Shown here in pieces: positions 30,000-56,734 of a stretch of DNA of 64,000 nt. A model generated the notes under the pieces. That model made no database searches and was not told the DNA's origin. It was given only the letters and a program-made list of their open reading frames with translations. How positions within the stretch are numbered: position 1 is the first letter of the stretch; every line of letters starts with the position of its first letter. The position numbers and the translations under genes were made by a program. Source of the DNA: a virus; the IMG/VR virus record IMGVR_UViG_3300022744_000026, positions 1-64,000 of that record, one strand, 5' to 3'.

Positions 30000-31742
30000 A
30001 TGGACACCGCACGCCACGTCGCCTTCAACCCTGCCGCTCCTGACGACGAGCGGCAGGACGCCCTGAGCGAGCTGACGAAGGCGCACATGCCGTCAGCGGC
30101 GCCAAGCTCCAACATGCTGGAGCTGGTGCAGTACGTGCGCGAGCAGTACGAGGCCGACAGCATGGAGAAGGCCATGCATGCGCAGAACGTGGTGCCTTTC
30201 CCCAGCATGGCGGCGCGCGAGCACAAGCCCGGCCAGCAGTCTGTGTGGCTGGATGACGTGCAACTGAACATCCAGGGCAACTGGTACGAGCGGCCGACCG
30301 GGTTCAGCTTCGACGCCATGCGCGCCATGGTGCACGGCACGCCGTTGCTGAATGCGATCATCATGACGCGCCAGCGCCAGGTGGCGCGGTTCTGCCGTCA
30401 GAACGTGGTGGGCCGCGGGGAGGGCTTTCGCATCGCGCTGAAAGACCCCAAGGCCAACCCCGACAGCAGCCAGCAGGCAGCCATCGGTCTGATGCAGGAC
30501 TTCTTCCAGAATTGCGGCTGGGAGCGCAAGGCGCGTCAGCGCATGCGGCTGCGGCGCGACAGCTTTGCGGGATTCATGACGAAATCCCTGCGCGAGACCC
30601 TGACGCTCGACAGCATGCCGATCGAGACCGAATGGAAGCGCGACAAGCGCCTGGGACTCGACGGCATCTATGCCGTCGACGGCAGCACCATTCGCCTGTG
30701 CACAGAGCAGGGCTACGACGGCGACGACGAGATTTTCGCGCTGCAGGTGGTGCAGGGGCAGGTGCGCAGCGCGTACACCTACGACGACCTGATCTATGTG
30801 CCGCGAAACCTGCGCGCCGACGTCACTGCTGGCGGCTACGGGCTGAGCGAGACGGAGATCCTCATCAAGGTGGTGACGGGCTTCCTGAACGCCTTCACCT
30901 ACAACACGGGGTACTTCGACAACAACAAGATCCCCAAGGGGATGCTGCACCTGACCGGCAACTACAGCGAGCAGGACATCAACGCCTTCAAGAGGCAATG
31001 GAACGCCATGGTGAAGGGCGTGAACAACGCCTGGACGCTGCCGGTGATGGTGAGCAAGGATCAGGAGTCGAAGGCTGCCTTCGAGAACTTCGGCGCCGAG
31101 CAGAACGAAATCATGTTCGCCAAGTGGATGACCTTCCTGGCGAGCCTGGCGTGCGCAATCTACGCCATCGACCCGACCGAGATCAACTTCGAAGCGTTCA
31201 CTGCCGGCACGTCGAGCCTCAGCGGCAGCGACACCGAGGAGAAGATCGCCCACAGCACCGACAAGGGCCTGCGGCCGATCCTGAGCTACTACGAAAGCCT
31301 GTTCACCGACTACGTGGTGAGCGAGTGGGGCGACGAGTACGTCTTCCGCTGGACCGGCCTGGACGACGAGGCGCCCGAGCAGATTTTCGAGCGCCAGAAG
31401 CTGGTGATGACCGTCAACGAGATGCGCGCGCTCGACAACATGGAGTCGATCGATGACCCATGGGGCGACTCGCCGATCAACCCGTCACTGCAGTCGGCCT
31501 GGCAGATGAGCCAGCAGCAGGGGCAGGAGGACTACGGCCAGCCAGGGGCGCCGCAGCCTGGCGCCGAGCAGCAGGGCGACGAGGACGGCCAGGACTTCGG
31601 CCAACCGCAGGCCGGCGACTTCGGGCAGCCGAAGCCTGACCAGCCCGAGCAGGCCGCGCCTGCCGAGCAGCCGCAGGACGCCGACACCGTCGCCAAGGCA
31701 TTCGGCCTGCCGGCGCTGCCGATCTACGGGATCAACGAGTGA
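30000..31742 (+). CDS. Portal protein
   Basis: VDGSTIR, GYGLSETE, YFDNNKIPKGML, MTVNEMR; acidic Q/P-rich tail; follows terminase. Confidence 0.9.
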   Translation: MDTARHVAFNPAAPDDERQDALSELTKAHMPSAAPSSNMLELVQYVREQYEADSMEKAMHAQNVVPFPSMAAREHKPGQQSVWLDDVQLNIQGNWYERPTGFSFDAMRAMVHGTPLLNAIIMTRQRQVARFCRQNVVGRGEGFRIALKDPKANPDSSQQAAIGLMQDFFQNCGWERKARQRMRLRRDSFAGFMTKSLRETLTLDSMPIETEWKRDKRLGLDGIYAVDGSTIRLCTEQGYDGDDEIFALQVVQGQVRSAYTYDDLIYVPRNLRADVTAGGYGLSETEILIKVVTGFLNAFTYNTGYFDNNKIPKGMLHLTGNYSEQDINAFKRQWNAMVKGVNNAWTLPVMVSKDQESKAAFENFGAEQNEIMFAKWMTFLASLACAIYAIDPTEINFEAFTAGTSSLSGSDTEEKIAHSTDKGLRPILSYYESLFTDYVVSEWGDEYVFRWTGLDDEAPEQIFERQKLVMTVNEMRALDNMESIDDPWGDSPINPSLQSAWQMSQQQGQEDYGQPGAPQPGAEQQGDEDGQDFGQPQAGDFGQPKPDQPEQAAPAEQPQDADTVAKAFGLPALPIYGINE

Positions 31743-32467
31743 AGACCGCCGCGCAGCAGCAGGCCCAGCCGATCCCCGGCTGCGCGCCTGGCGACGAGGT
31801 GTGGCTCAAGCACCCGGACGGGCCCGTGACCGCGAAAGTCCTGGCGCACGGGCAGCACGGTCTGACCGTCGACGTCGGCGGCAAGCAGCACCGCGTGAAG
31901 TGGGACAAGGTGCACGGGCACAAGCGGCGCACGGCCATCAACATGCAGGTCGAGGACGAGGGCGAGGATGGAATGGTGGTGCGCGACCAGCTCGGCCGGC
32001 GGCATTTCGTGGCAGTGCCTCCCGAGGCACGCGAGGAGCGGATGGTGGTGAAATCACATGGTGGCGGCGCCAGGCTGCTGGTGTTCGCAAAGGCGCTGAA
32101 GCAGCCCGAGAACGAGCAAGGCGGCTGGACCGAGGCGGGCAAGGCGCCGGCAAGCAAGGGCCATCACGTGGCGTTCCAGCACGGCGAGCACGCCGGCCGC
32201 GGCGAGGTGCAGGCGGCGGGCCGGGATGGCGTGACCGTGAAGGACGGCGCTGGCGCCAGCCATCAGGTGCCGCACAAGGCTATCACGCACCGGTGGGAAG
32301 GCAAAGAGGCGCCGACCGCTGGCCCTGGTGAGCCGGCCAGCCCGTCAGACGAGCTGCGCGAGTTCCTGGCCGGGCTGCTGAAAGACGCGCCGGACGACGT
32401 GCAAAAGTGGATCGGCCAGTACGTGCAGAGCCAGTCGAGCGAAGAAAAAGCCGATCGGCCTGGTTGA
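31739..32467 (+). CDS. Head-associated protein with repeated SH3-like beta units
   Basis: Two similar G..V....V.A.G..G.TV....H.V units separated by VVKS...LLVFAKA. Confidence 0.6.
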   Translation: MKTAAQQQAQPIPGCAPGDEVWLKHPDGPVTAKVLAHGQHGLTVDVGGKQHRVKWDKVHGHKRRTAINMQVEDEGEDGMVVRDQLGRRHFVAVPPEAREERMVVKSHGGGARLLVFAKALKQPENEQGGWTEAGKAPASKGHHVAFQHGEHAGRGEVQAAGRDGVTVKDGAGASHQVPHKAITHRWEGKEAPTAGPGEPASPSDELREFLAGLLKDAPDDVQKWIGQYVQSQSSEEKADRPG

Positions 32468-32517
32468 AAGAGGTTAGAGTAGTGTCTCTGCTAAACCTCA
32501 ACTCACCAGCAACTCAC

Positions 32518-32955: not shown

Positions 32956-32959
32956 GCAA

Positions 32960-33990
32960 AGCGCCCGGCACCCGCCGGGCCATCAAGTCAGCCGGCGTAT
33001 GCCCGTTGACTTGATGGCCCCACATCCAAGGCTTGGCCCCTTGGAGTTCCCAGCGATGGGGAGATACACGAGACACGCTGCCTTATGCGAGTGTGGGGCC
33101 GTCAGCTATCACAGATGCGCCAGCCGGAAAGCCCGGCAACTGCGCGACAAACAGTCCCAAGCCTGGGGCATCTGTGATGGTTGCACGCAGAAATGCGCAC
33201 ATAGACCGACGAGGGAAGGCGTCTGCTGGACGACGCCGGAAGACGATACGCGGATCATCACCGCCCCTGCGACTCGGGTCTCAGTCTTCACCGACCATCA
33301 CCAAATTCCGGACCGCGGCCCACAGCGCGATGGGAATCAAAACAGGCTTTCTGTGGGCGAGCTGAGGCGCGCGAGATAAGCGCCACCGTGAGGCGGACCG
33401 TTAAGTCGTCAACACCTGGGGCAGCCCGGGGCGCGCAGGGGTAGTGCCTGACAAACCACCCGGGGGAAGGGCCCGGGGCCACCGGATTGCGAGCAGCACT
33501 GGCGACTGCAGCAGACTGTAAATCTGTAGCCCCTAGGGGCAACGGGGTTCGACTCCCTGGCAATCCACCACTGACCATCATCACAGCGGGTGAGCGCCTG
33601 CTGCGATGATGGCCGGCGCAGTCTTGGCCTCTGCGCATCGAGCCGCACACCCCGTGCGCGCCCGCGGTAAGCACCCTGCCTCATGGGATCGGTCGTCAAC
33701 AGCCGTTGTAACGGATGCCGCTGGGCCTACGGCCGGAGTGCATCGCCGCAGTCTACGTAAGCGGCACAATCAACAAGCGGTGGGTAATCGGCCTAGAGTC
33801 GTCATCATCCCCCACTGGCCGGGAAACCGGCTGACGCGAATAGCCGATCTGCGGCGGTCTCGCGCCACAAGGTCGCCGCAGACTTCAGCGCCACCCCCGG
33901 GTGGCGTTGTCGTTTGTAACGTGCATCCTCCTCAGCGCCCCGTGGCGCCGTTGCCTACCCCCGCGCCTAGGCGGGTCACAAGCCCGGCCT
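32960..33990 (+). ncRNA. Candidate large structured ncRNA(s) flanking the tRNA
   Basis: Consecutive 10-21 bp stems with G-U pairs and GNRA loops; no convincing ORF. Confidence 0.6.
33484..33570 (+). tRNA. tRNA-Tyr(GTA), class II, encoded CCA
   Basis: GGATTGC/GCAATCC acceptor stem plus ACCA; GCAGA-CTGTAAA-TCTGT anticodon arm; long variable arm; TTCGACT T-loop. Confidence 0.92.
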
Positions 33991-37298: not shown

Positions 37299-38438
37299 AT
37301 GGCCCTACTTTTCGACCTCGCAGCCCTATCCGCACGCCAGACCGACGCGGTCCTGCATGACATTTTCTGCAAGGCCCACGGGCACGAGGGCGACGGCGAT
37401 GGGATATGGGCACCGGTCGACAACCCGTTTCTGGAGCGGATCGTTCAGCTATTCAGCGACCGTGGCCTGATGCGGATCGGAAGGCTGCGCGACGAGCTGC
37501 AGGCGTGGCTGGCTGGGGACCGGCACCAGGCCGGCGAGGCGAAGCCGCGCCCGCCGACAGATCGCGTCGTCTGGACGGATCAGGAGCTTGGCGTGGTGCG
37601 CCTGTACCTGCGCTCTCTGCCGCCAGACGCATGGACGATTGACGATCACATGCTGCTGGTGGACTTCCTGCACCAGCGCTACATGAGCCCGGACGACCTG
37701 CGCACGGAGGCCGATTGGCTGGCGAGCCGGTCCGTCCTCATGGGGCGCGTGCAGTCGCAGATGGACACGCTGACGACCAAGCAGGCTGACGCCGTACTGG
37801 CGGCAGAGTCCGTCCCGGCATGGCCTGAACTCGCCGGGCAGGTGCTGTCATTCGCCCGCAACCGCTGCGCCGATGCCGTCACCAGGGTGAGCGAAGGCAT
37901 GCGGCTGCAACTGCGCCAGACGATCGCTCAGGAGGTGGAGCAGGCGCACCTGGCGGGGCGGCCGGTGTGGTCGACGGCGCTTCAGACGAGGCTGCAGGAT
38001 GAGTACATGGTGCAGAACAGGGACTGGCGGCGCGTGGCGCTCACCGAGTCAGCCGAGGCGCTGAATCAGGGGTTCGTGGCCTGCCAGGAGCCGGGCCAGA
38101 AGCTCAAGCGGGTGGAGCAGTACAAGGGCGTCTGCGCGTGGTGCGCGAAGATCGACGGGCGGGTGATGGAGGTGGTTGACCCGAGTGAGCCGGAGAAGGA
38201 TGGGGAGAGGCAAATTTGGGTCGGGAAAACGAACGTCGGCCGAAGCGTGGCGCCTCGCAAGCGCGTGGGTGATCTGCTGGTGGAGCGTGAGCCGGATGAG
38301 CTATACCATATCGCTTCCGGCGCCCAACATCCAAATTGCAGAGGCAGATGGGTTCCCGTCATCACCGACAAGCCCGGTGACGACCCTCAGTTCGGAGACT
38401 GGTTGCGGGCTACTTTGCAGGGCGTGACGGCAGCATAG
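37299..38438 (+). CDS. Head morphogenesis protein (MuF/SPP1 gp7-like)
   Basis: RDWRRVALTE, CAWC, HPNCRG; late motif upstream. Confidence 0.8.
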   Translation: MALLFDLAALSARQTDAVLHDIFCKAHGHEGDGDGIWAPVDNPFLERIVQLFSDRGLMRIGRLRDELQAWLAGDRHQAGEAKPRPPTDRVVWTDQELGVVRLYLRSLPPDAWTIDDHMLLVDFLHQRYMSPDDLRTEADWLASRSVLMGRVQSQMDTLTTKQADAVLAAESVPAWPELAGQVLSFARNRCADAVTRVSEGMRLQLRQTIAQEVEQAHLAGRPVWSTALQTRLQDEYMVQNRDWRRVALTESAEALNQGFVACQEPGQKLKRVEQYKGVCAWCAKIDGRVMEVVDPSEPEKDGERQIWVGKTNVGRSVAPRKRVGDLLVEREPDELYHIASGAQHPNCRGRWVPVITDKPGDDPQFGDWLRATLQGVTAA

Positions 38439-38442: not shown

Positions 38443-39837
38443 ATGGCCAAGCCCGCCCCTCTCTACGTCCACCGCCCTGTCACCAACGCTGCGGACTTGG
38501 TGGCGTGGGCCCGCTCGCAGGGATTCAAGAGCCCCATGCCAGCCGAGAAGTGGCACGTGACGCAGGCATACAGCCGCAAGCCGGTGGACTGGCACGCGGC
38601 TGGTGACTCGTTCGACAAGTTGAAGGCCAGCGGCGGCGCGCGCACCGTGTCGCCTCTCGGCAAAGACGGCGCCGTGGTGCTGCACTTCGATAGCGCCGAC
38701 CTGCGCCGCCGCTGGCGCGAGTTCCGCGACGCTGGCGCCTCATGGGACTACGATGCCTACCGGCCGCACGTGACCATCACCTACGACGGCGGCGACGTGG
38801 ATCTGTCCAAGGTCGAACCCTACACAGGGCCGATCGAGTTCGGCCCCGAGGTGTTCGAGGCACTGAAGGAGAACCCGATGGCGAAGGCCCTTCCGTTGGT
38901 ACTGCTCTTCAAGTCCATGGTCCCCACCTACACCCGCCACGACGGCACCGTAGTCCAGGCCCACAGCACCAAGGTCCAGCGCCGAGCCAGCGCGCACCCT
39001 GGGCAAGGCGACCTGTTCCGCGAACCGTCCAAGCCGCTGGGGCCGAACCCCTACAAAGGCAAAGGCCCTGTGAAAGACACTGGTGATCTATTCGCTGACA
39101 CGGATGAGCGGCAAGCCAAACCACGGGCGCCTGCCACGGAAACGCCGGAGTTTAAGAAGTGGTTCGGCAATTCAAAGGTTGTGGACAAGGATGGGAAGCC
39201 GCTGGTGGTGTATCACGGCACCAAGTCAGATTTTGGTGCTTTCGATCTGAAGCGCGCAGGAGCAAGCGATGATGGACTGGCTGGCCGAGCTTTTTACCTG
39301 ACCTACAACCCGGAAGAAGCAAGCGGATACGCGGAGGGTGATAACTTCGGCAGAGGTGACTCACCGAACGTGATGCCTGTTTTTGTGTCCATGCAAAACC
39401 CTTTGCGTATCGTTGACGGCAAGCTGCCGGATGGGCGGAGTGTTATGTCTGTGCATAATGGGTTTGGCTCTGGCATCAATAGCAAAGGCGGCGCAGAGGT
39501 GCAGCGCATCGCCAATGAAGGCGGACATGACGGCGTCATGTGGGTCCGCCGCGATGGCGGTGTCGGGCATGTTGCTGTTTTTAGACCCAACCAAATCAAA
39601 TCTGCAACCGGCAACCGTGGCACCTTCGACCCCAGTGAGGCCGACATAACCAAGGCCCTTGCTGGCGCCAGGGTGGTGCTGCGCAAGTCAGGCGACCAGC
39701 AACTGGATGCACTGATCGCCGAGCACGAGCGGCTGGTGGGTGTGCTGAATTCGCCAGACCACGCCGACGACCGGCGAGAGGCCAAGAAGCAGGCGCGCGA
39801 GCTGGCGGGCTATCGGCGCGAGCGGCAGGCGCAATGA
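38443..39837 (+). CDS. Fusion: Acb1/T4 gp57B-like 2H phosphoesterase + polyvalent-type ADP-ribosyltransferase
   Basis: HVTQAYS and PHVTITY (two HxT motifs); ETPEFKKWFGNSKVVD.DG.PLVVYHGT...FY.T...A.GYA...NQIKSATGNRGTFD. Confidence 0.8.
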   Translation: MAKPAPLYVHRPVTNAADLVAWARSQGFKSPMPAEKWHVTQAYSRKPVDWHAAGDSFDKLKASGGARTVSPLGKDGAVVLHFDSADLRRRWREFRDAGASWDYDAYRPHVTITYDGGDVDLSKVEPYTGPIEFGPEVFEALKENPMAKALPLVLLFKSMVPTYTRHDGTVVQAHSTKVQRRASAHPGQGDLFREPSKPLGPNPYKGKGPVKDTGDLFADTDERQAKPRAPATETPEFKKWFGNSKVVDKDGKPLVVYHGTKSDFGAFDLKRAGASDDGLAGRAFYLTYNPEEASGYAEGDNFGRGDSPNVMPVFVSMQNPLRIVDGKLPDGRSVMSVHNGFGSGINSKGGAEVQRIANEGGHDGVMWVRRDGGVGHVAVFRPNQIKSATGNRGTFDPSEADITKALAGARVVLRKSGDQQLDALIAEHERLVGVLNSPDHADDRREAKKQARELAGYRRERQAQ

Positions 39838-40075: not shown

Positions 40076-43000
40076 ATGCTCATCCTGTTCGCCAAGTCCC
40101 AGCAGTCCCTGTTCGTCAACATCCCCGTGCACGTCAAGGGCACCGTCCGCAAGGACGGCACGCGGGTGGCGGACCACATGAGCATGCGGCGCAAGAAGCT
40201 GGAGCCGCACCAGGCGGCTGAGCACCACCAGGCAGGGCTGTTCGGGGACGCAGAGCACCACGCCGCGCCGGCTGGGCCGAAGCTGGGCGCCAAGCTGACT
40301 AAGTTCCTGCAGCGCCACGGCGGCGCGGCCCGCATGGCGGACACGCTGGCGGGGTTCACGCCTGAGCAGCGCGCGAAGATGCTGGACATGATGGCGGTGC
40401 TGGGGGGTGTGTCGGCGAATGAGGTGCATCAGGCGCTGAGTGCGCATGGCGCAGATCAGCCCACTGGCCACACCGAGCCCACCAGCCCTGCCGAGCCCGA
40501 CCTGTTCTCCCAACCCGCCGAGGCCAGCGCCCAGGCGCCCGCCGCACCCGCGGCCACCACCCCGGAGTCCACCCCCACCCATGTGCCCGAACCTGCGAAA
40601 GCTGCAGAAGAAACAAGCGCGGCGCCTGCGCCGAAAGCAGACCCTGAAGGCGGCGTCGTCAGCAATGGGACTGGTGCAGCGGCAGTAGCCGACCATGGCC
40701 CGCGCGACGGCGACCGCAATGCGGAAGGGTTGGTGTTCAAGGATGGCCGCTGGCACAGGGAGGAGCCCGCGGCCGAGCAACATGCACCAACCACGCCGGC
40801 CACCCCCGCCCTGACCACCTACACCACCGCCAAAGGCAAGACCCTAACCGGCGTGGTGCGCGCCGACCTGACCAAGGAGCAGGCGCAGGCGATCGATCCG
40901 TACACGTTCCGGCACCAGGGCGGATGGTTCATCCGCGAGAAGCACCTGAGCGCAGCGCCGGCCACGTCAGCCGCGCCCGCCACCGATATCGCCACTGCGC
41001 CGGCTGCTGCCGCCCCCGCCGCACCTCCCGAACCAGCCCGCCCCTCCGGCGCCAAGCTCCGCACCGCCGGCCAAGCCCTGACCGAGAAGGCCGAAGCCGA
41101 AGCCAACCGCGACCGCAACACCAACACCGCGCGGCGCGCCCGCATGGCATCCAGCGCCGAGGCCGACGCCCGCGCGCAAGCCGCCATCGGCCGCACTATG
41201 GTCAACCTCGCCGACGCCATCGACGCCGGCCAGGCTCACCACCTGAACGGTGTGACAAGCCGCGCGGCTGTCGAGACGCTGGACCTGATCCTGCGCCGGG
41301 CGATGCATGCGGCCGACCGCAATCTGAGCTACGCCGACTCGCAGGCTCGCAAGGGCCGCCCGCCCGAGCCCGACGACATCCGCGCTGCCGTGATGCCGAC
41401 GATCACGCTGCACCCGAGCGTGGCCGCTGACCTGGCGAAGGCGCTGGCGGGCGTGAAGGGTGCGGCAAAGGTAGCAGGCCGGCTACACCGGAGTGCCACG
41501 GATGGCGGATCTCTGGTGTGGCTGTCGCAGGATGACGCGCAAGAGCTTTCCGACAAGCTCAAGGCGGCCGGCAAGGAAAGCCTGGCCAAGTGGCACCTGG
41601 GCGAGCAACTGAGCACCGTGAAGCGCCTGGGCGCCATGGGCATCAAGACCGACGCCGACCTGCGCCTGGCGCTGGCCGAGTACGTCATGTACCGCGACGG
41701 CCCGAAGGCTGCCGACCCGATCAAGGCGGCCGAGCGCGCCCTGGTGGGTCAGAAGGTTGGCGTGGACTTCTTCCCGACGCCGAAGGCGCTGGCCGGGCGC
41801 ATGGCTGAGCTGGCGGGCGTGAAGCCGGGCATGTCGGTGCTGGAGCCGAGCGCCGGATCGGGCAACTTGGCCGACGCGGCGCGCGAGGCCGGCGGCGATG
41901 TGCACGCGATCGAGGTGTCGGACCGGTTGCGCAACCTGCTGGGCGCGAAGGGGCACAAGCTGGTGGGGCGCGACTTCTTGGAGCATGCGGCGCCAGGGCA
42001 GTACGGCGCGGTCCTGATGAACCCGCCGTTCGGCAACCGCCAAGATGCAGCCCACATCATGCACGCCTGGGACATGGTGGCGCCCGGAGGCAAGCTGGTG
42101 GCGATCGCCGGTGAAGGCGTGTTCGGTGGCAGCGACCGCAAGGCCGTCGAGTTCCGCGAGTGGCTGGAGGAGCACGGCGCCGACGTCGAGAAGCTGCCGG
42201 AGAACACGTTCCGCGACGCCGGCCTGCTGGCGCAGACGGGAGCAAATGCGCGGCTGGTGGTGTTGACGAAGCCGGAGGCTACGGCGGCGGCGCAGGCTGA
42301 CGCCGGGCCGCAGGAAGGCGAGCGCAACGCTGAGGGGCTGGTGTTCAGGGATGGGAGGTGGCATCGGGAGGAGGCTGAGCAGACCGCCGCGCCAGCCCCT
42401 GCCACCCCCGACCCCGCCATCACCCACGCCGAAGACAAAGCCGACCTCGCCGAGGAGTTGATGCGCAACCCGGAGTCGGAGCGGGCGAAGGAGTTGATTC
42501 AGAGGGTGGCGGCTGGGCCGAAGGCTGTGGAGCCTGCCGCGCCCGACCCGCTGACGATGACTCCAAAGCAGTACCACGAGGCCAAGCTGCGCCAGATGGC
42601 GGCGGGCAACGACATTGACTTGTCGGAGGTCCGTGAGATGTACGACACCGAAGCGGGCAAGAAGGCCAACGAACAAGAATGGGTCGACGGCATCATGTCG
42701 GCTGCGAAGGCTGGCAAGCCGTTGACTCGTGCTGCGCTGGACAAACTTCATGAGGCGAGGCCTGGGGCGGTTGGTCAGTTGGCCCACGACTATCCCGAGG
42801 CAAAAATTCCTTCTGGCTATCAAGTCCCTGACGCGCGCAAGTCAGAAGCAGATGAGCAAGCCGCTCGCGTGGCGAATCGGAAAGCCATCAAGCAGGAAAG
42901 CAAGGCTCGACGGGGTGGTGCACCCACCCCCGACGACCTCGACCCCACCAGCCCCAACTACCGCTACCGCGACACCGGCCAGATCGCCGGCAGCCGCAAG

Positions 43001-47239: not shown

Positions 47240-47560
47240 GCAAGGCCGGTAATGGCTGGCAGGGGCAGAACTGACCCCGGTTAGACACTCGGTAATTTGA
47301 AAACGGCCCGTCTACACTAGGCGTTTTCAATTGCTGCGCTGCACCATTACCGGATTACCAGTTACCCGCACAAGACATATAGAAAGACACATAGAACATT
47401 CACTACATTCATTCATATTGTAGTTAGTGAATGAATATATAAATCTCTCATAGTATCTAGTATTATGGTAATAATGGTAATTTGGTATTGGTATAGAAGA
47501 AAAGACAATGAAATCAACAACTTAGCGAATTACCGGCAACCTAACCAAGCCTAACCGACG
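47240..47560. other. AT-rich origin-like element B, homologous to element A
   Basis: Same block order: TTACC x3, AAGACATATAGA, CATTCA..TGAATG, TCTCTCATAGT, GGTAA array, IHF consensus at 47512-47524. Confidence 0.6.
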
Positions 47561-47775
47561 TTCCGCACCACAACCGGCGGAAAGCTGCTACAGTGCGGGC
47601 TGTGCACGGCGAGCTGCACTGGTGCTGAAAGCGGGTACACTGCATCGGTCGACTTTGGTTGACCCGGCGTGACACCCGGAAATTTGGATGTAAACAAGGG
47701 CTGATGCTCTGCGGGTAGGCTTACCAAAGCCTGTGTCACACCTGCTGAGCGTCAGTCCTTTTTTGCTTTTGCACT

Positions 47776-48567
47776 ATGAACAACCTTATCCCTTTTGAGT
47801 TCGACGGCGCTGCCGTGCGTGTTGTGACTGGAGGCGACGGCGAACACCAGTTCGTCGCGTCCGATGTCCTTGGTGTTCTCGCTCTTGACCGCAAAGCGCT
47901 GGAACGCCTGGATGACGATGAGAAGGGTGTGAGTTCAATTCACACCCCTGGTGGCCACCAGCAGATGACCACCATCAACGAGTCCGGCCTCTACAGCCTG
48001 ATCCTCGGCAGCCGCAAGCCCGAAGCCAAGCGGTTCAAGAAGTGGGTCACCAGCGAGGTGCTGCCGGCCATCCGCAAGACCGGCGTCTACGCCACGCCGG
48101 CCGCCGCTGCGCCGACCGGTGATGATCTAAAGCTGTCGCTGCTTGAGTCCGCCGTGCGTCGCGGTCTGGTGAGCGCCCCGGCTGCGGAGATTGCCGCCCT
48201 GCGGATCATTGGCGTGGAGCCCGAGCCTGCGGTGCCAGCCGCCATCCTGCCGAGGATCGAGTCTTCGGACGTTCGTGTGGTGCCGTCTCCGCGCAAGCCG
48301 CGCGCACCGGCCGCGCCGAAGCCGAAGATCCAGCTCACGGCGAGTGTTTACGGCAGGATGCACTGGCCAGATGCGGCGCTGCGCGTTGAGTTGCACCAAG
48401 CGGAGGAGTGGTTGACGCAGAGTGAAAGCACGCTCTTGGCCGCAATGAAGGAGCGTGGCTATCTGGACGGCGAATTCGAGCCGACGCCAAAGGCCAAGAA
48501 TCTGCGCGACAAGTACGGTTGGAAGCTGAGGGCGCTGCTCGGCGCGCTGGGCGTCTCGGCGTACTGA
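47776..48567 (+). CDS. Bro-N domain antirepressor-like protein
   Basis: FVASDV, INESGLYSLILGSRKPEAKRFKKWVTSEVLPAIRKTG. Confidence 0.92.
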   Translation: MNNLIPFEFDGAAVRVVTGGDGEHQFVASDVLGVLALDRKALERLDDDEKGVSSIHTPGGHQQMTTINESGLYSLILGSRKPEAKRFKKWVTSEVLPAIRKTGVYATPAAAAPTGDDLKLSLLESAVRRGLVSAPAAEIAALRIIGVEPEPAVPAAILPRIESSDVRVVPSPRKPRAPAAPKPKIQLTASVYGRMHWPDAALRVELHQAEEWLTQSESTLLAAMKERGYLDGEFEPTPKAKNLRDKYGWKLRALLGALGVSAY

Positions 48568-48602: not shown

Positions 48603-51600
48603 ATGGCACTCATCCTGTTCCTCAAGGCATCGTCTATTCCGGCTGGCGCGCGCTGGATCAGCGTGCACCCCAATGGCGATGCTGGCCCGGCCCAGCCCAT
48701 CCTGATCCAGCCGCAAGCTGACGGCAGCGCGAAGGTCATCGGCGGCGCAGGTGGCAGCCTCAACCACATGCGCATCCGCGCCGTGCGCAGCGAGGCCGAG
48801 TACAAGGCTGAGGCCGAGAAGTCCCGCGCCGAGAAGACCGCACAGAAGAAGGCGCAGACCCTGGCGGACAAAGCCGCCGGCATCCACGAGTCCAAGAAGA
48901 AGGCGCGCGACGCCGTGACTGCGCAGCGGCGCAAGGCACAGCAGGAGTTCGTGCAGACGGTCGCGGAGGCTGCCGGGTGGAAGCCGGAGCAACTGGCGCC
49001 GCCCGATGTGTCCGGCCTGAGCGAAGGCGCCGCGCGCAAAGCGGTCGACCAGCACCACCGTGAGATTTTCCAGAAGGCCCGGGAGGTCGTTGAGCAGCAG
49101 CGCCAGCGGCTGGTGCACGACTCGGACGCCCGCGCGCAGGCTGGTCTGGGCGAGGTGCCGCTTGAGTCCAGCAAGCCCGAAGACCTGTCCGTGCAGGATC
49201 TGGCGCCGGTGCAGACGGGCAACAGCGGGCTGGGGTTCTCTGCCGAGTACGGCAAGCGCGCCGCGGCGGCCGGGCTGACTGCCGAGGAGAAGTCCGCCGA
49301 GGCCGGCGCTGCCAAGCCGCCGCTCACCGACGAGCAGCGCAAGGCGGCCGTCGAGCGCGGCGAGGCAAAGAAGCTCATCAAGAAGGAGCTTGAGGGCATC
49401 AAGCAGGCCGAGCGGCCCAAGGTGGCTGTCGACCTGATCGACGCGAAGAAGGCGGCCGACCTGCTGCGCGCCGAGAAGAAGATGCAGGCGCTGGAGAAGC
49501 AGGCTCGGCAGGCCACCAAGCAGATTGACGACTCGAAGACCGAGCCCAAGGCGTTTGTTCTGGAGTACACGGCCGACGATGACGTCGACGCGAAGATCAA
49601 GCAGGACATCGATGACGAACTCGCCACGGTAGCGACCACGTCATTTCTCAACGAAGTCGGCAAACTCGCAGACGGCGACCCGCGCGATCGCCTGGGCAAG
49701 CACGTCGGCCACGGCGCCTACAACGCGATCAACGCTGTGTCGCTGGCTGTTGGTGGCGACGCGCTGATCGACCGCTCTGTCGTGGACGTGCTGGGCATTG
49801 ATGCAGCCACGCAGATCCTGGCGCGCCGCGTGCAGCGCGACATGCCCGACCAGGCTGAGCGGATTGCGGAAGGCGTCAAGGCGTTCCATGCTGACACGCA
49901 CGCCGCCACCACGGCCCGCGCGCTGACGCAGGCCGCGCAGCTCACTGATGCCGCGAAGGCGATCGAGCTGCCGGACGGCGAGACGGCCACGGACCTGCAG
50001 ACCGCGCAGGAGTTGAACGCCAAGCGCCGCGCCGCGGTCGGCGACGCGCAGCGCATCCTGGGGCAGGTCTACGGCGAGCAGGAGGCCAATGCGAGCATGG
50101 TGATGGCGCTGAGCCGCAAGGCGCGCGACAAGTTGGATGTGCCGATGGGCAAGGGCAGCATCGAGTCGGCGATCACGCAGGCTCGGGCGCTGGGCCTGCA
50201 GCGCGGCGAGTACACCATCGAGCAGCGCGCCGGCCAGACGTGGCTGACTGTGCACGATACCGGCATGGACCGGCTGGCGAAGCCGATCCAGCGCGCGGAC
50301 GTCGAGCAACTGCGCGACAACCTCGACATCATGTCCGGTGCACATGACGAGGACGGATGGATGCCGAAGGGCGTGGCGGACAGGCCGGACTTGGACTTGA
50401 GGCCTGAGCCTGGCGTGGCGCCGCGGCTGGGGAGTGAGTTCGCCCCCGAGGCTGGAGGCGACATTGAGCAGCACCTGCGCGACTACATCGGCGGGCGGGC
50501 GGCGGATGGGGACACGCCGTCTGACATCCTGGCGGATGTCCAGTCGGCCGAATTCTTCCGCAAGGCTGGCGACACGGCCGCCTACCGGGCAGCGCTGGAT
50601 GCCGTGGCGCCGAACGACAACGGACAGGTGCGCGCGGAGGCCATGGGCCCGGCGTTCGATCGCTATGCCGACGACTTCGTGAAGCGCGAGTATGGCGGCG
50701 CGCGCAGCGCGCTGAACAGCCAGCAGGTGAAGGTTGACGACGTTGCCGGCGAGGCGCTGCACCGCGCCCTGGCCGAGCACCCGGACGGCGTGGCGGCGTT
50801 CAAGGCGATCGGCGACCTGACGAACAAGGACCAGCGCACCCTGCGAGAGTTCTTTCACCGCGAGATTGCGAAAGAGGATCCCGAGGCGGCGGCCACCCGC
50901 CACCAGTTGGAGGCGCATACTGCCGCCGAGCCCGAGCGCGAAACCGAAGACATGTTCGGCGAGCGCACCGAAAACCCCGAGTGGTCGGAGTGGCGCAGCA
51001 AGCGCGACGAGCTGGCGGGAAAGCTAAGCGCCGGCAGCCTGGACTGGGCGAAGTACGCCGACACGCACCGTGGCCATGAGAAAGCCTACGAGTCGATTCA
51101 GGACATCATCCGTGGCCGCGTGAGCGAGGCATTCGCGCGGCACCACAACACGCTGCGGCCCAATGAGCCGGTCAAGGTCGGCCGGTCGGTCATCCGCAAC
51201 AACCTGAACCACCTCGATGCCACGGACCCGGCTGCGCGCGCCGATCGGGAGCGCAAGGAAAGCGAGTTGCGCGACAGCCTGCGCGAGCGCGTGCAGGGCC
51301 GGTACGCGGCCGGCGGCGTCAGCGACAAGCTGGATGCGGCGCGCGACCAGCGCGAGGCATTCGAGCAGGCGCAGATGGGGTTCTTCGGTGGCGACGAGCC
51401 GGCGGCAGGCGCGCAGGCTGGAAAGCTGGCGCCTGACCTGAAGGCCGGCGACGAGCGCCACACCCTAGGACACGCCGCCGAGCGCCAACTCGCCGGCCTG
51501 GTGGCACGCATGGGCGGCAACTTCAAGCCCGGCCAGCCGGTCAAACTGTTCCGCCCCACCATGTCCGGCGGCGACAACTACGCGCGCCAGCGCGCCATCA

Positions 51601-53132
51601 AGCTGATCGAGAAAAACAAGCGCATGGGCCTGCACCTGGGTGCCGGGTCAGGCAAGACCCTGGTGAGCCTGGGTGCGTTCACGCACATGAAGGCACAGGG
51701 CAAGGCCAGCCGCGCGATCTACGCCGTGCCCAGCATCGTGCAGGGGCAGATGGGCGCGGAGGCGCTGCGGTTTCTGGAGCCAGGCAAGTACAACTGGCAC
51801 TGCCAGCCTGGCGCCAGCCGGGATGAGCGGATCGCGGCTTACAAGAATCCTGCGCACGATTTCTGCGTGGTCACGCACCAGTCGCTGCGCGACGACCTGA
51901 TCCACCTTGGTGCTGAGCATGCCGGCATCGAGCCGGACGCCATGCGCGAGAAGCTGGGCACGATGCGCCGCGGCGAGCGCAAGGAGTGGGCCAGCAAGGT
52001 GCTGGAGCATCACGGCATCCACTTCGACTTCTCGGCAGTGGATGAGGGGCACAACCTGCTGGACCGCGCCGGCAAGGCCGACTCTGCGATGTCGGTTGCG
52101 ATCGGCGGGCTGACGGATCACACGCCGTACCACCTCAGCATGACTGCCGACCCGGTGCGCAACAACGACGCCAGCGAAGTGTTTTCTGCCCTGCAGAAGG
52201 TCGCACCAGACCGCTACACCGACCGCGCCGAGTTCATGCGCCGCTACGGCCCGGACACCGTGGCATCGAAGGACGGCCTGCAGCGCGAGATGGCGCGCTA
52301 CTTCTACGCGCACAGCATCACGCCGGACGTGAAGGCCACCAGCCAGGAAATCAAAGTGCCGCTGCACGAGGAGCAGAAGACCGCCATGGCGCAGCTCGAC
52401 CGCGACATCTCGACCATGAGGCTGGCGCGCATGCGCAAGACCGTGGACGTGGAGACCGCCAAGCGGGTGAGCCCGGGTGCGTTCGAGGGCGTGCCAGAGG
52501 ACAAGCACGAGGCCGTCGCCAAGGGGCTGCAGGACTCCATCGGCATCGTGCGCGAGACCGCGACGCAGCGCGTCATCAACGCCCACCCGAAGGCCGAGAA
52601 GATGACCGAGCTGGTCAAGCAGATCAAGGCGCGCCCCGGCAAGGCCGGCGTGGTGTTTGTGCACAGCCTGGAAAGCGTGGAAGCCATCAAGCAGCGGCTC
52701 GAAGGCGAGGGCATGCGCGTGGTGACGATCAGCGGGTCCGACTCCAGCGAGGAGAAGGACCGCAAGCGCAAGATGTTCAGCCCGGACTCAGGCGAGGCGC
52801 AGGCCGATGTGCTGGTGGCGAGCGATGCCGCCAGCACGGGGCTGAATGCGCAGAGGGGGCAGTATCTGGTGCAGTACGACACGCCCGCGACGGCGGTGAC
52901 ACACGCTCAGAGGCGGGCCCGCATCCATCGCACGGGACAGAAGCAAGACATCGACCTCATCGACTTGGTGGCGGACCATCCGTCCGAGCGCAAGGCGCGC
53001 GACCGGCTGGCGAAGAAGTACAGCATGCGGCAGGTGATGACCTCACCCCTGGAGAAGGTGGACGATACCGGCGTGGCTGCGTATCTGAACGCGCGCAAGG
53101 TGCAACAGGACGAGCAGAGCGGGTTGTTTTGA
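48603..53132 (+). CDS. Large polyvalent protein with C-terminal SNF2-like helicase
   Basis: GAGSGKT, VDEGH, MTADP, TGLNAQ, QRRARIHRTGQ. Confidence 0.88.
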   Translation: MALILFLKASSIPAGARWISVHPNGDAGPAQPILIQPQADGSAKVIGGAGGSLNHMRIRAVRSEAEYKAEAEKSRAEKTAQKKAQTLADKAAGIHESKKKARDAVTAQRRKAQQEFVQTVAEAAGWKPEQLAPPDVSGLSEGAARKAVDQHHREIFQKAREVVEQQRQRLVHDSDARAQAGLGEVPLESSKPEDLSVQDLAPVQTGNSGLGFSAEYGKRAAAAGLTAEEKSAEAGAAKPPLTDEQRKAAVERGEAKKLIKKELEGIKQAERPKVAVDLIDAKKAADLLRAEKKMQALEKQARQATKQIDDSKTEPKAFVLEYTADDDVDAKIKQDIDDELATVATTSFLNEVGKLADGDPRDRLGKHVGHGAYNAINAVSLAVGGDALIDRSVVDVLGIDAATQILARRVQRDMPDQAERIAEGVKAFHADTHAATTARALTQAAQLTDAAKAIELPDGETATDLQTAQELNAKRRAAVGDAQRILGQVYGEQEANASMVMALSRKARDKLDVPMGKGSIESAITQARALGLQRGEYTIEQRAGQTWLTVHDTGMDRLAKPIQRADVEQLRDNLDIMSGAHDEDGWMPKGVADRPDLDLRPEPGVAPRLGSEFAPEAGGDIEQHLRDYIGGRAADGDTPSDILADVQSAEFFRKAGDTAAYRAALDAVAPNDNGQVRAEAMGPAFDRYADDFVKREYGGARSALNSQQVKVDDVAGEALHRALAEHPDGVAAFKAIGDLTNKDQRTLREFFHREIAKEDPEAAATRHQLEAHTAAEPERETEDMFGERTENPEWSEWRSKRDELAGKLSAGSLDWAKYADTHRGHEKAYESIQDIIRGRVSEAFARHHNTLRPNEPVKVGRSVIRNNLNHLDATDPAARADRERKESELRDSLRERVQGRYAAGGVSDKLDAARDQREAFEQAQMGFFGGDEPAAGAQAGKLAPDLKAGDERHTLGHAAERQLAGLVARMGGNFKPGQPVKLFRPTMSGGDNYARQRAIKLIEKNKRMGLHLGAGSGKTLVSLGAFTHMKAQGKASRAIYAVPSIVQGQMGAEALRFLEPGKYNWHCQPGASRDERIAAYKNPAHDFCVVTHQSLRDDLIHLGAEHAGIEPDAMREKLGTMRRGERKEWASKVLEHHGIHFDFSAVDEGHNLLDRAGKADSAMSVAIGGLTDHTPYHLSMTADPVRNNDASEVFSALQKVAPDRYTDRAEFMRRYGPDTVASKDGLQREMARYFYAHSITPDVKATSQEIKVPLHEEQKTAMAQLDRDISTMRLARMRKTVDVETAKRVSPGAFEGVPEDKHEAVAKGLQDSIGIVRETATQRVINAHPKAEKMTELVKQIKARPGKAGVVFVHSLESVEAIKQRLEGEGMRVVTISGSDSSEEKDRKRKMFSPDSGEAQADVLVASDAASTGLNAQRGQYLVQYDTPATAVTHAQRRARIHRTGQKQDIDLIDLVADHPSERKARDRLAKKYSMRQVMTSPLEKVDDTGVAAYLNARKVQQDEQSGLF

Positions 53133-53684: not shown

Positions 53685-54608
53685 ATGCACGATGCATCCA
53701 GCCTGCCCGACTTCATCAGCATCTCGGGCTTGTTCAAGGCGATGCCCCAGTCCGAGGGTGGGCAGCGCTTCGTGTACTTCGAGGCATCGAACGAAGGTCT
53801 GGACCAGCAGAACGAGATCGTGAGTGCGAAAGCGCTGGGTGAGTCGAAAGACTACTACCTCCGCTACGGCAACATTGACATAGATCATTTGACCCTGACC
53901 GGCCGCCCGAACCCGGCGAAGGGCTATCCCGGCATCCCGGACTACATGAGCTACGAGATTGGCGTGCCCGTTGAGGTGCGCCAGTCCGGCAAGACGACGT
54001 TCGTCAAGAGCCAGATCAAGTCCGGCGAGGGCCCTGCGGCCGAGAAGGCGAACCAGTTCTGGAACAGCCTGATGACGAACCCGCCGACCCGCTGGTATCC
54101 CAGTGTCGGCGGCGCCATCGACCCCGAAGGGCGGATTGTCGAACTGGACCCGGCCACCGGCGCCAAGAAGGTGATCATCACCAAGGTGCGCTGGACGAAC
54201 ATCGGCGTGAGCCTCACGCCCGTCAACCAGCATGTCCCCGGCTGCGCCACGGTGCCGATCGGCGCCTTCGCCAAGTGCCACACGCCTGGTGGCGGATTAG
54301 ACCTGACCAAGGCCCTGACCGCCGGCTACGGCTCCGATTCCGCCACCCTCACCGGCGGCGCAGCCCTGCGCATGCAGTCGCTCGACGGCGCCGTGCGCGA
54401 CACCACCGTGCCCACGCCCCAATACTGGACATGGCGCGACAAGATGGCCGGCGCCATTCGTGACGGCAGCATTCGCATACCGAACGCTGAGGGCTTGATT
54501 GCCCACAGCGCCACTACCTACGGCATGCCCCTGTCCGATGCCGCGGAATACGTGGAGCGCTTTTTGCGCGACCTGAAACACGGACTATCTCGACGGAGAA
54601 ACGCATGA
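53685..54608 (+). CDS. Prohead maturation protease
   Basis: ASNEGLDQQNEIV, NIDIDH, PSVGG, LTPVN; directly upstream of scaffold and capsid genes. Confidence 0.8.
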   Translation: MHDASSLPDFISISGLFKAMPQSEGGQRFVYFEASNEGLDQQNEIVSAKALGESKDYYLRYGNIDIDHLTLTGRPNPAKGYPGIPDYMSYEIGVPVEVRQSGKTTFVKSQIKSGEGPAAEKANQFWNSLMTNPPTRWYPSVGGAIDPEGRIVELDPATGAKKVIITKVRWTNIGVSLTPVNQHVPGCATVPIGAFAKCHTPGGGLDLTKALTAGYGSDSATLTGGAALRMQSLDGAVRDTTVPTPQYWTWRDKMAGAIRDGSIRIPNAEGLIAHSATTYGMPLSDAAEYVERFLRDLKHGLSRRRNA

Positions 54609-55261
54609 GCGGCAACTTTGACGCCCTTCTGGCCGAACTGAATGACGAAGTGGCTGGCATGGCCAAGGCGATGCCGGCTGGTGACGATCTGGACGACGAG
54701 GACGAAGACAGCAACACCGTCGACACGGCCGACACCGACAAGAAGGTGATGGCTGCTGGTGACGGCGACGCCGACGACGCTGGCGGCGATCCCGATGGCG
54801 ACGAAGACGACAAGCCGATGATGGGCAAGAGCATGACCGTCGAAATCGACGGCAAGCAAGTCGAAGCCATCGACGGCACCGAACTGGTGAAGTCGCTGAT
54901 GGGCCAGGTCGAGCAGTTGGGCGGCAAGCTCGGCGCTACCGAAGCCAGCCTCGCCAAGGCTCTGTCGGACACGCTGGCCGTGGTGAAGGGCCAGGGCGCC
55001 GTCATCAAGTCGCTGCAGGAGACCGTCACCAAGCTGGCCGCTGCCGGCCGTGGCCGCAAGTCGGTCGTCACCGTCGCCGACCCGGCGCCGATGGCGAAGT
55101 CGGCCGGCGCCGCCGCCCCGCTGCAGGGCCGTGAACTCATGGCCAAGGCCCTTGCTGCACAGCAGGCCGGACGCCTGACCGGATTGGACGTCGCCCGCGT
55201 CGAGTCTGCAATCAACCAGGGCGCGCCGGCTCCTGCCGACGTTCTTTCTCGCATCAACTGA
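54605..55261 (+). CDS. Scaffold protein
   Basis: Acidic N-half, coiled coil, many K-A/K-S sites; lies between protease and capsid genes. Confidence 0.7.
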   Translation: MSGNFDALLAELNDEVAGMAKAMPAGDDLDDEDEDSNTVDTADTDKKVMAAGDGDADDAGGDPDGDEDDKPMMGKSMTVEIDGKQVEAIDGTELVKSLMGQVEQLGGKLGATEASLAKALSDTLAVVKGQGAVIKSLQETVTKLAAAGRGRKSVVTVADPAPMAKSAGAAAPLQGRELMAKALAAQQAGRLTGLDVARVESAINQGAPAPADVLSRIN

Positions 55262-55273
55262 CCAGGAGGCCCC

Positions 55274-56734
55274 ATGGCACTCGAAGACATTGTGAACAGC
55301 TCTGTGCCCGGCGGCTCGACCGTGATGGGCGAGATGGGCGACGCTGACCTGCAGGCGCTGCACAAGGCGCTGACGGCCGGCTACGGTTCGGACACCAACG
55401 GCCTGACGGGTGGCTCTGCCTTCCGCATCCAGTCGCTGGACACCACGCTCAAGGCGACGGTGCAGGACAACAGCCACTTCGCGCTGTTCAATGCCCTGAG
55501 CAAGCCGCGTGCGACCGCGGTGGTCGATGAATGGACCGAACAGGATTCCATCGGCGGCTTCCTGGGCGGCACGTTCAACGATCAGGACGGTACGGCGCAG
55601 GAAACGAATGGTTCCTACACCCGCCGGACCGCGAACGTGAAGTACCTGATGACGTACCGCAAGGTGCCCATCGTGCTGCAGCAGCAGAGCAACATCACCG
55701 ACGTGGTCGCCATCGAGACGGTCAACGGCACCAAGCAGCTCCTGACCGACATCGAGCACGGCCTGTTCGAGGGCGATTCGTCCATCCTGCCGAAGTCGTT
55801 CGACGGCATCTATGCGCAGATGGCCGGCTTCAATGGTGGCGCGAACATCTTCGACATGGCTGGCCAGCCGCTGAACACCATCGACCCGATCAGCCGCGCT
55901 GCTGAACAGGTCTTCGGCTACGGCTCGTTTGGCAAGCTGACCCACCTGTACCTGCCGCCGGCCATCCAGTCGGACCTGAATGCAGGCCTGGACCCCGCCT
56001 TCCGCGTCGCGCTGGACAACAGCCCGAACAGCGTGATGCTGGGCACCCACGTGTCGGGCATCCGCACCAGCTATGGCAACATCGCCACCACGACGGACGT
56101 TTTCGTGCGCGACGAGCGCATGAAGAAGCCCTTCGAAGTGCGCAATGCGACCCACCTGGCTGTGTCGGCTGCGAACATCGCGTTCAAGCCTGCCTCGTTC
56201 ACGGCTGTGGCTGGCGTCGGCGCCAGTGATTCCGCCTGGGGTTCGACCCATGCCGGCAACTACTTCTACGCCGTGACCGGCATCAACCACAACGGCGAGA
56301 CCGCCGCTCTGGTGTCGGCCAGCGTGACCGTGGCGGCCACCCAGCAGGTGACCATCACCATCACGCAGTCGGCCAGCGGCACGGAAACCGGCTACGTCAT
56401 CTACCGCAGCCGCAAGAACGGCACCAGCGCACTGACCGACCTGCGCGAGATGACCAAGGTCGCCAAGGCCGGCGCCACCACCACGTTCATCGACAAGAAT
56501 CGCGTGATCCCGGGCTCGACCCGCGCCTACGCGCTGAACCTGTCGCCGAGCGATGGCAGCATCGACTGGAAGCAGTACCTGCCGATGATGAAGATCCCGA
56601 TGGCCGCGGTGCAGTCGCCGATCATCCCGTGGCTGCAGATGATCTGTGGCTACATGCGCGTGACCAAGCGCGCGCACCATGTTGTCTTCGACAACGTCGT
56701 GCCCAGCGGCGCGAGCTGGAAGCCGTTCGTCTAA
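55274..56734 (+). CDS. Major capsid protein (SPO1/Twort-like type, with FN3-like insertion)
   Basis: KALTAGYG...GSAFRIQSLD, IEHGLFEGDS, FDGI. Confidence 0.88.
   Translation: MALEDIVNSSVPGGSTVMGEMGDADLQALHKALTAGYGSDTNGLTGGSAFRIQSLDTTLKATVQDNSHFALFNALSKPRATAVVDEWTEQDSIGGFLGGTFNDQDGTAQETNGSYTRRTANVKYLMTYRKVPIVLQQQSNITDVVAIETVNGTKQLLTDIEHGLFEGDSSILPKSFDGIYAQMAGFNGGANIFDMAGQPLNTIDPISRAAEQVFGYGSFGKLTHLYLPPAIQSDLNAGLDPAFRVALDNSPNSVMLGTHVSGIRTSYGNIATTTDVFVRDERMKKPFEVRNATHLAVSAANIAFKPASFTAVAGVGASDSAWGSTHAGNYFYAVTGINHNGETAALVSASVTVAATQQVTITITQSASGTETGYVIYRSRKNGTSALTDLREMTKVAKAGATTTFIDKNRVIPGSTRAYALNLSPSDGSIDWKQYLPMMKIPMAAVQSPIIPWLQMICGYMRVTKRAHHVVFDNVVPSGASWKPFV

Follow-up and report, generated by a model that had tools for sequence, protein, structure and literature searches.

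A probable protease-site motif shared by head proteins and enzyme leaders suggests that a phage packs these enzymes into its capsid, frees them by cutting and injects them along with its DNA

Why do large enzymes encoded among the head genes of a phage carry the same short lysine motif as the head proteins themselves? The question arises from the first 64 kb of a 78,097-bp viral genome with a guanine-cytosine (GC) content of 65% (IMG/VR record IMGVR_UViG_3300022744_000026, positions 1 to 64,000, hereafter the window), in which a head-assembly block fills positions 30000-56734; the phage is a myophage and a relative of Bordetella phage PHB04. Three genes for polyvalent proteins, named here by their first nucleotides (38443, 40076 and 48603), lie on one strand in the interval from the portal gene (30000) to the protease gene (53685). 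A sequence-only reading of this block had proposed that a hydrophobic-x-K-[A/S] tag joins the structural proteins to non-structural enzymes and acts as a capsid-targeting and cleavage code; all 20 peptides that it quoted are present, in the proteins and at the positions to which it had assigned them. We find that the motif shared between head proteins and enzyme leaders points to enzymes that enter the capsid, are released there by cutting and reach the next host together with the DNA. Drawing on the sequence and on analogy with other phages, we put the chances at somewhat better than even that cargo made together with the head proteins would enter the procapsid guided by its leader, be cut after the lysine and leave with the DNA.

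The head proteins share a lysine motif

The short form of the motif, Phi-x-K-[AS]-Phi (Phi, hydrophobic residue), was found in the following proteins, with ↓ marking the predicted cut:

30000..31742, + strand: portal protein, 580 residues (Pfam Phage_portal, PHROG portal families)
30162-30176 (residues 55-59), residues 193-197 and 31689-31703 (residues 564-568), + strand: portal Phi-x-K-[AS]-Phi sites
53685..54608, + strand: prohead serine protease, 307 residues (PHROG head maturation protease)
53730-53744 (residue 16) and 54303-54317 (residue 207), + strand: protease sites LFK↓AM and LTK↓AL
54605..55261, + strand: scaffold protein, 218 residues, with seven Phi-x-K-[AS]-Phi sites (7 against 0.34 expected)
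55274..56734, + strand: major capsid protein of the SPO1/Twort type, with the predicted maturation site LHK↓AL at 55358-55372 (LHKAL from residue 29)

Together, portal, protease, scaffold and capsid protein hold 14 copies against 1.16 expected. Chance was estimated by shuffling the residues inside each protein, which preserves its composition, and none of 1,000 such shuffles reached 14. Our motif expressions were picked after examples had been seen, so all enrichment figures given here are descriptive, and the upstream/downstream and strand controls reported below reuse the same expression. The short form looks like the cleavage site of a prohead protease. The sites previously pointed out in the capsid protein (LHKAL, residue 29), the protease (LFKAM, residue 16; LTKAL, residue 207) and the scaffold (six sites) were all recovered, and the scaffold proved to contain a seventh, MAKAL at residue 179.

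These sites are conserved. A protease alignment search of IMG/VR yielded 80 related loci (the MuF-like minor head protein, used alone, yielded two), and both the short form and the longer form described below recur in PHB04, in four other cultured phages and in these 80 uncultured relatives. The N-proximal and C-terminal portal sites are kept in all six phages compared. Related scaffolds (n=60) contain a mean of 5.4 sites (0.33 expected) and never fewer than three, and related proteases (n=76) a mean of 3.3 against 0.33. Motif positions are kept across phages that differ in GC content and in host.

The capsid protein provides the closest link to a known maturation site. It matches PDB entries 9vel (SPO1 Gp6.1, 1.5e-31), 5lii (the capsid of a Twort-like Staphylococcus phage, 4e-15) and 9row (3e-14), which bears out its earlier assignment to the SPO1/Twort type. 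The motif [LM]xK[AS]L lies inside the first 60 residues in all 69 recognisable capsid proteins of the 80 loci. The 9row chain (439 residues) equals the 5lii chain (463 residues) minus its first 24 residues; its start at S25, right after K24 (V-V-K↓S-F-Q-T-G-Y-G), aligns with L-H-K31↓A32-L-T-A-G-Y-G of the window protein. The alignment of K31↓A32 fits, indirectly, the proposal that such capsids mature near an N-terminal KS site, to the extent that the deposited chain boundary of a homologue marks a cut. Cleavage-site data were not found in papers on Felix O1, fRuSau02 and a Listeria phage.

The candidate enzyme for these cuts is the prohead protease. An AlphaFold model built from 30 sequences has a mean predicted local distance difference test (pLDDT) score of 79, with a confident core at residues 21-185 and a helical tail; the stretches around both lysine sites are modelled as disordered. 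In a Foldseek search the core matched T4 gp21 best (5jbl, E 5e-5, probability 1.00), followed by herpesvirus assemblins/proteases, and the predicted structure belongs to the T4 gp21/assemblin fold. All 30 sequences keep His68 and Ser140. In nearly all of the 76 proteases listed, the first ~15-20 residues end in M-L-K-A-T-P or a close variant, and both protease and scaffold have a site ~18-20 residues from their own N-terminus. Protease residues ~205-235 (window 54303-54390) copy the capsid N-arm (K↓A-L-T-A-G-Y-G-S-D...L-T-G-G...Q-S-L-D), with a capsid-family match over residues 206-252. This copy is a possible means of co-assembling the protease with the capsid protein.

A longer, hydrophobic form marks the enzymes

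Four proteins encoded between portal and protease, referred to here as cargo proteins, carry the motif in an extended form:

31739..32467, + strand: post-portal protein, 242 residues, with the double site VVK↓S...LLVFAK↓A at residues 103-119 (32045-32095)
38443..39837, + strand: probable polyprotein comprising Acb1 (2H phosphoesterase, residues 6-144), a cassette, an ART-PolyVal domain (248-395), a second double site and a helical tail
38878..39018, + strand: cassette of 38443, with MAK↓A, the spacer ALPLVLLFK↓S, a hairpin (V160-H174) and QGDLF (residues 188-192)
39646..39690 (residues 402-416), + strand: second double site of 38443, ITK↓A...VVLRK↓S, between the ADP-ribosyltransferase (ART) domain and the C-terminal tail
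40076..45079, + strand: giant polyvalent protein, 1667 residues, with a methyltransferase-like region and a C-terminal LPD1 domain (Pfam LPD1 1.6e-18, weak MTS match)
40076..40243, + strand: cassette of 40076, with the leader MLILFAK↓S, QQSLF, a hairpin (V17-H34) and QAGLF (residues 52-56)
48603..53132, + strand: giant SNF2/SF2 helicase-type polyvalent protein, 1509 residues (Pfam Helicase_C, ResIII, DEAD)

In each of them, four or five hydrophobic residues are followed by K↓[A/S], either at the N-terminus or between modules. The expression Phi3-x-K-[AS] occurs five times in the four proteins against 0.39 expected, a number reached by none of 1,000 shuffles, and is absent from the rest of the 78-kb genome. 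Of these copies, two are at residues 2-4 of the giant proteins: MLILFAKS and MALILFLKA (the latter at 48603-48629) begin at residue 1 of 40076 and 48603, as originally noted, and the internal tags of 38443 and 31739 were likewise confirmed. The Pfam assignments of 38443 are strong (Acb1 5e-40, ART-PolyVal 2e-27). In the window, double sites occur twice in 38443, once in the post-portal protein and once at the C-terminal end of 40076 (MRK↓S..LAK↓A, 45029-45058). A greasy peptide of 5-13 residues enclosed by two sites reads like a piece that would be used and then removed.

Orthologues preserve these arrangements. The post-portal proteins of PHB04 and of the uncultured loci L004 and L005 have the double site at the same place. 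The N-terminal 290 residues of 40076 are homologous to PHB04 gp027 (1e-33), and the layout of its cassette is found in PHB04, L004, L005 and L027. Orthologues of 48603 in PHB04, Mecenats66 and ~20 uncultured relatives keep the leader, followed by IP.GA.W.TVHPNG. The leader also appears on other proteins: in PHB04 on an HD phosphohydrolase, gp028, the methyltransferase and the helicase; in Jeremy on a 128-residue protein and a 1213-residue ADP-ribosyltransferase; in Mecenats66 on the helicase, ORF50 and a NUDIX hydrolase; and in ST4 on a NUDIX hydrolase.

In the 80 loci, every open reading frame (ORF) of 100 residues or more was scanned for the long form within 14 residues of the start codon. 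On the + strand upstream of the protease gene it was present in 44 of 925 ORFs, about nine of which match an internal helicase motif (I-I-V-V-P-K-S), the rest being true N-termini; downstream of the capsid gene the + strand gave 2 of 984, and the minus strands gave 4 of 1157 and 3 of 823. The leader is thus ~20-fold enriched at the ORF starts of one genomic interval. It is followed by at least five different peptides, namely the hairpin, the helicase peptide I-P-x-G-A-x-W-I-T-V-H-P-N-G, two peptides of the G-R-F/G-E-F type and an alanine-rich helix; because it is joined to so many downstream sequences, the leader behaves as a module of its own.

Could the shared motif be a mere by-product of an alanine- and leucine-rich, high-GC proteome, in which helices of the L-x-K-A-L type arise without any common function? 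Outside the head block the short form is mildly more frequent than expected (17 against 9.18 in the other 68 proteins), and the four whole cargo proteins are not significantly enriched for it (6 against 3.68). Shuffles that preserve composition nevertheless leave the excess of both forms intact, the positions persist across differing GC contents and hosts, the leader is concentrated in a single interval, and the cassette profile described below reaches an E-value of 7e-31. Composition as the cause is ruled out by the shuffles and the conservation, and we give this explanation hardly any credence. The distinction between a short form in structural proteins and a long form in cargo, drawn in the sequence-only reading, is statistically right (14 against 1.16 and 5 against 0.39); the enrichment expected of the motif was found for the short form in head proteins and the long form in cargo, and failed for the short form in whole cargo proteins.

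Two other readings of the leader were rejected. A signal peptide is at odds with a hydrophobic run of only four or five residues, the absence of a basic n-region and the occurrence of internal copies. A nucleotide-level cause, such as a conserved 5' coding region of leaderless mRNAs, is at odds with the recurrence of the same peptide internally and across distant hosts.

The tail of 38443 (residues ~420-462, window 39700-39830) contains a conserved helix of ~35 residues (L-I-A-E-H-E-R-L-V-x-V-L-N-S-P-x-H-x-D-D-x-x-E-A-K-K-Q) without a Pfam match in the scan of the window; almost the same sequence is present in 10 of the 150 best cassette carriers of the database search that follows.

Leader and hairpin form a widespread cassette

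In 38443 (residues 160-174) and 40076 (residues 20-34) the tag is followed, as the sequence-only reading had observed, by a V..(Y/T).R.DGT.V..H peptide. We aligned 13 leader-plus-hairpin peptides from the window and related loci into a profile with the consensus M-x-I-L-F-x-K-S-H-V-x-x-Y-[VT]-R-K-D-G-T-x-V-x-x-H. Searched against 1.84 billion cluster representatives, the profile matched 1,210 at E<=0.001 and 90 at E<=1e-10, with a best value of 7e-31. The best 150 of the 1,210 carriers contain 289 cassette copies, 91 of them N-terminal and 198 internal, with up to six in one protein. Among 185 copies registered on the core motif, the residue before the predicted cut (P1) is lysine in 184, the residue after it (P1') is serine in 92, alanine in 63 and threonine in 25, and P3 is leucine, phenylalanine or methionine in 162. 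A second hydrophobic-x-K-[A/S] site lies 4-18 residues upstream in 60 of 103 internal copies, compared with 2 of 103 in a control window. Five of the nine carriers scanned have polyvalent-protein or counter-defence domains (InPase, PBECR3, LPD3, Acb1, RadC, RelA_SpoT).

The 13 sequences matched no Pfam family at a meaningful E-value, six typical hairpin strings were not found in the searchable literature, and the 55-residue cassette region of 38443, used as the query of a word-indexed homologue search, retrieved only itself. A tblastn search of cultured phages with two cassette peptides gave useful scores only in PHB04 and Jeremy. Locus searches with two of the carriers found no locus for P0007 and one contig of the same clade for P0015.

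A different function for the lysine is conceivable. Leader and hairpin could form one folded adaptor, a three-stranded sheet that would bind DNA, the portal/MuF or the capsid interior, with the cargo packaged and injected uncut and the conserved K-[A/S]-H being a structural element that merely resembles a protease site. An AlphaFold model of the 40-residue cassette (13 sequences) is a small beta sheet with pLDDT 82-92 over residues 11-30, in which L-F-K-S-M-V is a strand, and in most database copies K-[AS] directly precedes the H-V of the hairpin. Packaging without processing also has a precedent in the virion RNA polymerase of N4, according to passages of PMC5512222. Yet the leader also occurs without the hairpin, before at least four other peptides, and 9-13 residues separate the two in 40076 and its orthologues. 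The P3, P1 and P1' residues match those of the capsid, scaffold and protease sites, and the upstream second site is hard to explain by folding alone. We regard the folded adaptor as unlikely.

A broader version of the cleavage model extends it beyond this phage: leader, lysine site and basic hairpin would together be a portable address-and-release code of phages with SPO1-type heads. The leader, or a spacer cut on both sides, would dock any protein to the procapsid core or the protease, the protease would excise it, and the hairpin would hold the freed enzyme with the DNA for ejection. We hold this generalization to be tenable, though somewhat short of an even bet.

The hairpin has a life of its own. 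In carriers P0016, P0035 and P0009 it occurs as three to six tandem repeats (V-x-V-x-x-Y-T-R-x-D-G-T-x-V-x-x-H) without the greasy leader. P0016 also scores barely above the threshold of Pfam PBCV_basic_adap, at another site.

Cargo and head genes share a setting and a promoter-like motif

The head-assembly block runs from the portal gene through the genes for the 242-residue post-portal protein, a tRNA-Tyr, an OmpA-like protein, a MuF-like protein, the Acb1/ART-PolyVal fusion and the 1667-residue giant to a Bro-N antirepressor, the 1509-residue SNF2-type giant, the protease, the scaffold and the major capsid protein. The closest cultured relatives are PHB04 (genus Phabquatrovirus), Pseudomonas phages Touem01, Dolphis and Jeremy, Aeromonas phage ST4 and Morganella phage Mecenats66. 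PHB04 has the identical order (portal, minor head protein, giant methyltransferase, giant helicase, protease, scaffold, capsid), with an annotated Ulx-like gene between its two giants. Because the gap between portal and protease spans only a few kilobases in Touem01, Dolphis and ST4, we take it to be a variable cargo slot.

A promoter-like motif, CGTGAC-N2-BANNNT, accompanies these genes. The window contains 12 copies (25054-63618) against 1.38 expected, and none of 100 shuffles reached 12. Copies before head and cargo genes, and the neighbouring minor head gene, are:

38423..38436, + strand: CGTGAC-N2-BANNNT copy before 38443
29980, 37279, 40036, 48583 and 53664: copies before the portal, MuF, 40076, 48603 and protease genes
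37299..38438, + strand: MuF/SPP1 gp7-like minor head protein (weak PHROG minor head protein match), without a lysine tag

The motif ends 7-8 nucleotides before the start codons of the portal, MuF-like, 38443, 48603 and protease genes and 27 nucleotides before that of 40076; most copies end exactly 7 nucleotides before a start codon. This spacing suggests leaderless late mRNAs. The position of the motif supports those start codons and hence the N-terminal place of M-A-L-I-L-F-L-K-A. Its presence before cargo and head genes alike fits joint late expression. The MuF-like protein is kept in PHB04, Touem01, Dolphis, ST4 and Mecenats66, and the cargo genes lie directly downstream of it.

The tagged proteins might also not be virion cargo at all. 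Their cassettes would then be polyprotein junctions or docking peptides at work in the late-infected cell, for example in recruiting partners to the sliding clamp or replicating DNA, and any cutting would only free the enzymes in the cytoplasm. The 150 carriers contain more clamp-like Q-x-x-[LM]-F peptides than expected (36 against 6.1), and these tend to come after the cassette (20 of 289, compared with 1 of 289). The tagged genes of Jeremy, ST4, Mecenats66 and L090 are found upstream of the terminase gene and not between portal and protease, and T4 Acb1 is not known to be a virion protein. Several points speak against such a cytoplasmic role. The tags share the promoter-like motif and the operon with head genes, enzymes directed against restriction and CBASS (anti-phage signalling that relies on cyclic oligonucleotides) are most useful at entry, and prohead proteases of the assemblin fold, such as T4 gp21 and HK97 gp4, are active inside procapsids. 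Moreover, two homologous proteins of P1, DarB and Ulx, are part of the virion, and their genes neighbour those for portal and protease. We consider a role outside the virion quite improbable.

Some features of the region stand beside these results. Q-x-x-L-F peptides resembling sliding-clamp-binding motifs occur in the window at 40100-40114, 40229-40243, 39004-39018 and 53115-53129, the last being QSGLF at the C-terminal end of 48603. In L090, an uncultured locus with a portal 59% identical to that of the window, three consecutive genes upstream of terminase (7591-13708) each start with a longer leader that ends in K↓A and is followed by the hairpin. The tRNA-Tyr (anticodon GTA, 33484-33570) is situated inside the head block in a stretch of ~1 kb without a convincing ORF. 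Between the giant cargo genes, 45080-48567 is a stretch of lower GC content (0.586 in 46001-48000) with two minus-strand ORFs (46274-46950) and the Bro-N antirepressor gene (47776-48567); it looks like an inserted regulatory cassette.

Discussion

We propose the following route for the cargo. The post-portal protein, the Acb1-ART fusion, the methyltransferase-LPD1 giant and the SNF2 giant, which occupy the interval from portal to protease, would be expressed with the head genes. A greasy peptide would bring each precursor into the assembling procapsid, much as the T4 capsid-targeting sequence (CTS) and the first 30 residues of P1 DarB do for their proteins. The prohead protease most probably cuts after the lysine of hydrophobic-x-K↓[A/S], a rule under which the capsid N-arm would be shortened at K31↓A32, the scaffold cleaved at its seven sites, and both portal ends and the protease itself trimmed. 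With leaders and spacers cut away, the modules would separate; 38443 would release Acb1 (~residues 1-148), a hairpin-ART module (~158-404) and the helical tail. Matured modules would often start with the small basic beta hairpin (Y-x-R-x-D-G-T-x-V-x-x-H), sometimes with Q-x-x-L-F nearby. Once free, the modules would go out with the DNA, and their first action would be in the new host, directed at CBASS and restriction. The frequencies of the motif, its conservation, the folds and the homologous capsid site are what the analysis shows; we infer the cutting of cargo, its loading and its injection, the first steps of which rest on the shared and conserved motif and on the analogy with T4 and the P1 DarB leader.

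Several observations weigh against this proposal. The lack of short-form enrichment in whole cargo proteins and the mild background excess elsewhere in the proteome have been mentioned. The cassette model places the K↓S bond inside a confident strand of the sheet that contains the hairpin, so the lysine could be structural and not a cut site. The hairpin is not restricted to phage cargo, because leaderless repeat proteins (P0016, P0035) carry it, and the N-termini of these two proteins resemble signal peptides. Large cargo can be packaged uncut, as with the N4 polymerase. Gene calls and start codons come from a simple ORF picker based on GC content at third codon positions (GC3), and no virion proteomics was found in the literature for PHB04, Dolphis or Mecenats66.

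A close parallel is the CTS of T4, an N-terminal peptide on the internal proteins IPI-III and Alt that is removed by the prohead protease gp21. In both phages a short N-terminal peptide is attached to non-structural proteins expressed with the head genes and ends in a cleavage motif, a predicted one in the present phage, also used on capsid and scaffold, and the protease fold is the same (5jbl). The T4 cut follows glutamate (L/I-x-E↓), whereas the shared motif here, Phi-x-K↓[A/S], predicts a cut after lysine. The hydrophobic-run leader has no sequence likeness to the T4 CTS and, unlike it, is also found internally, between two sites, in multi-enzyme proteins, often before a conserved basic hairpin.

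The P1 Dar system (DarB, Ulx, DarA, DdrA, DdrB, Hdf) similarly has giant methyltransferase/helicase functions encoded next to the portal and the prohead protease. In DarB the N-terminal 30 residues are enough to bring a reporter into capsids, and no shared N-terminal consensus was found among the Dar proteins (PMC9024508), in contrast to the single leader consensus here. Methyltransferase and helicase are on two proteins in the window and on a single DarB in P1, and in P1 a glutamate precedes the cut in the capsid protein (E120↓S121). The window yielded no homologue of Ulx, its ORF at 45278-45565 being unlike the Ulx-like gene of PHB04; DarA, Hdf, DdrA and DdrB were not searched for.

Packaging of polyvalent proteins into heads, with possible proteolytic release, was predicted in 2017 in passages of Iyer et al. 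(PMC5512222), which proposed processing by metallopeptidase domains inside the same proteins; these passages contain neither the leader/lysine-site/hairpin cassette nor the use of the prohead protease. Proteins 38443, 40076 and 48603 fit that class, with ART-PolyVal, LPD1 and a methylase-helicase pair in a portal-terminase context.

Proteases of giant phages of the SPN3US/phiKZ type also cut after glutamate. According to the abstracts of PMC10052503 and PMC7411985, many head-internal proteins of such phages (SPN3US gp245, phiKZ gp175) have one protease motif in common with the capsid protein and are delivered into the host by ejection; these are jumbo phages with an inner body, and a portable leader-plus-hairpin cassette is not described there.

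The claim of an undescribed system must accordingly be narrowed. The idea that polyvalent proteins are packaged is known (PMC5512222, in the passages cited), and so are the cleaved targeting peptide of T4 and, in P1, the N-terminal packaging signal of a DarB-type giant (PMC9024508). What appears uncatalogued, in Pfam and in the searchable literature, is the leader/lysine-site/hairpin cassette.

Outside T4 and P1, the selection, loading and cutting of polyvalent proteins have been left open, and a cassette defined by sequence would make the question testable, the more so as it is present in cultured, tractable phages (Pseudomonas putida phage Jeremy, Mecenats66, ST4 and PHB04). If the proposal is true, injected anti-defence enzymes would be predictable from sequence, in this phage the anti-CBASS Acb1, an ADP-ribosyltransferase and a DarB-like methyltransferase and helicase. 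On the broader, portable-code version of the model, at least 1,200 protein clusters would use the code, which could offer a transplantable handle for loading chosen proteins into capsids.

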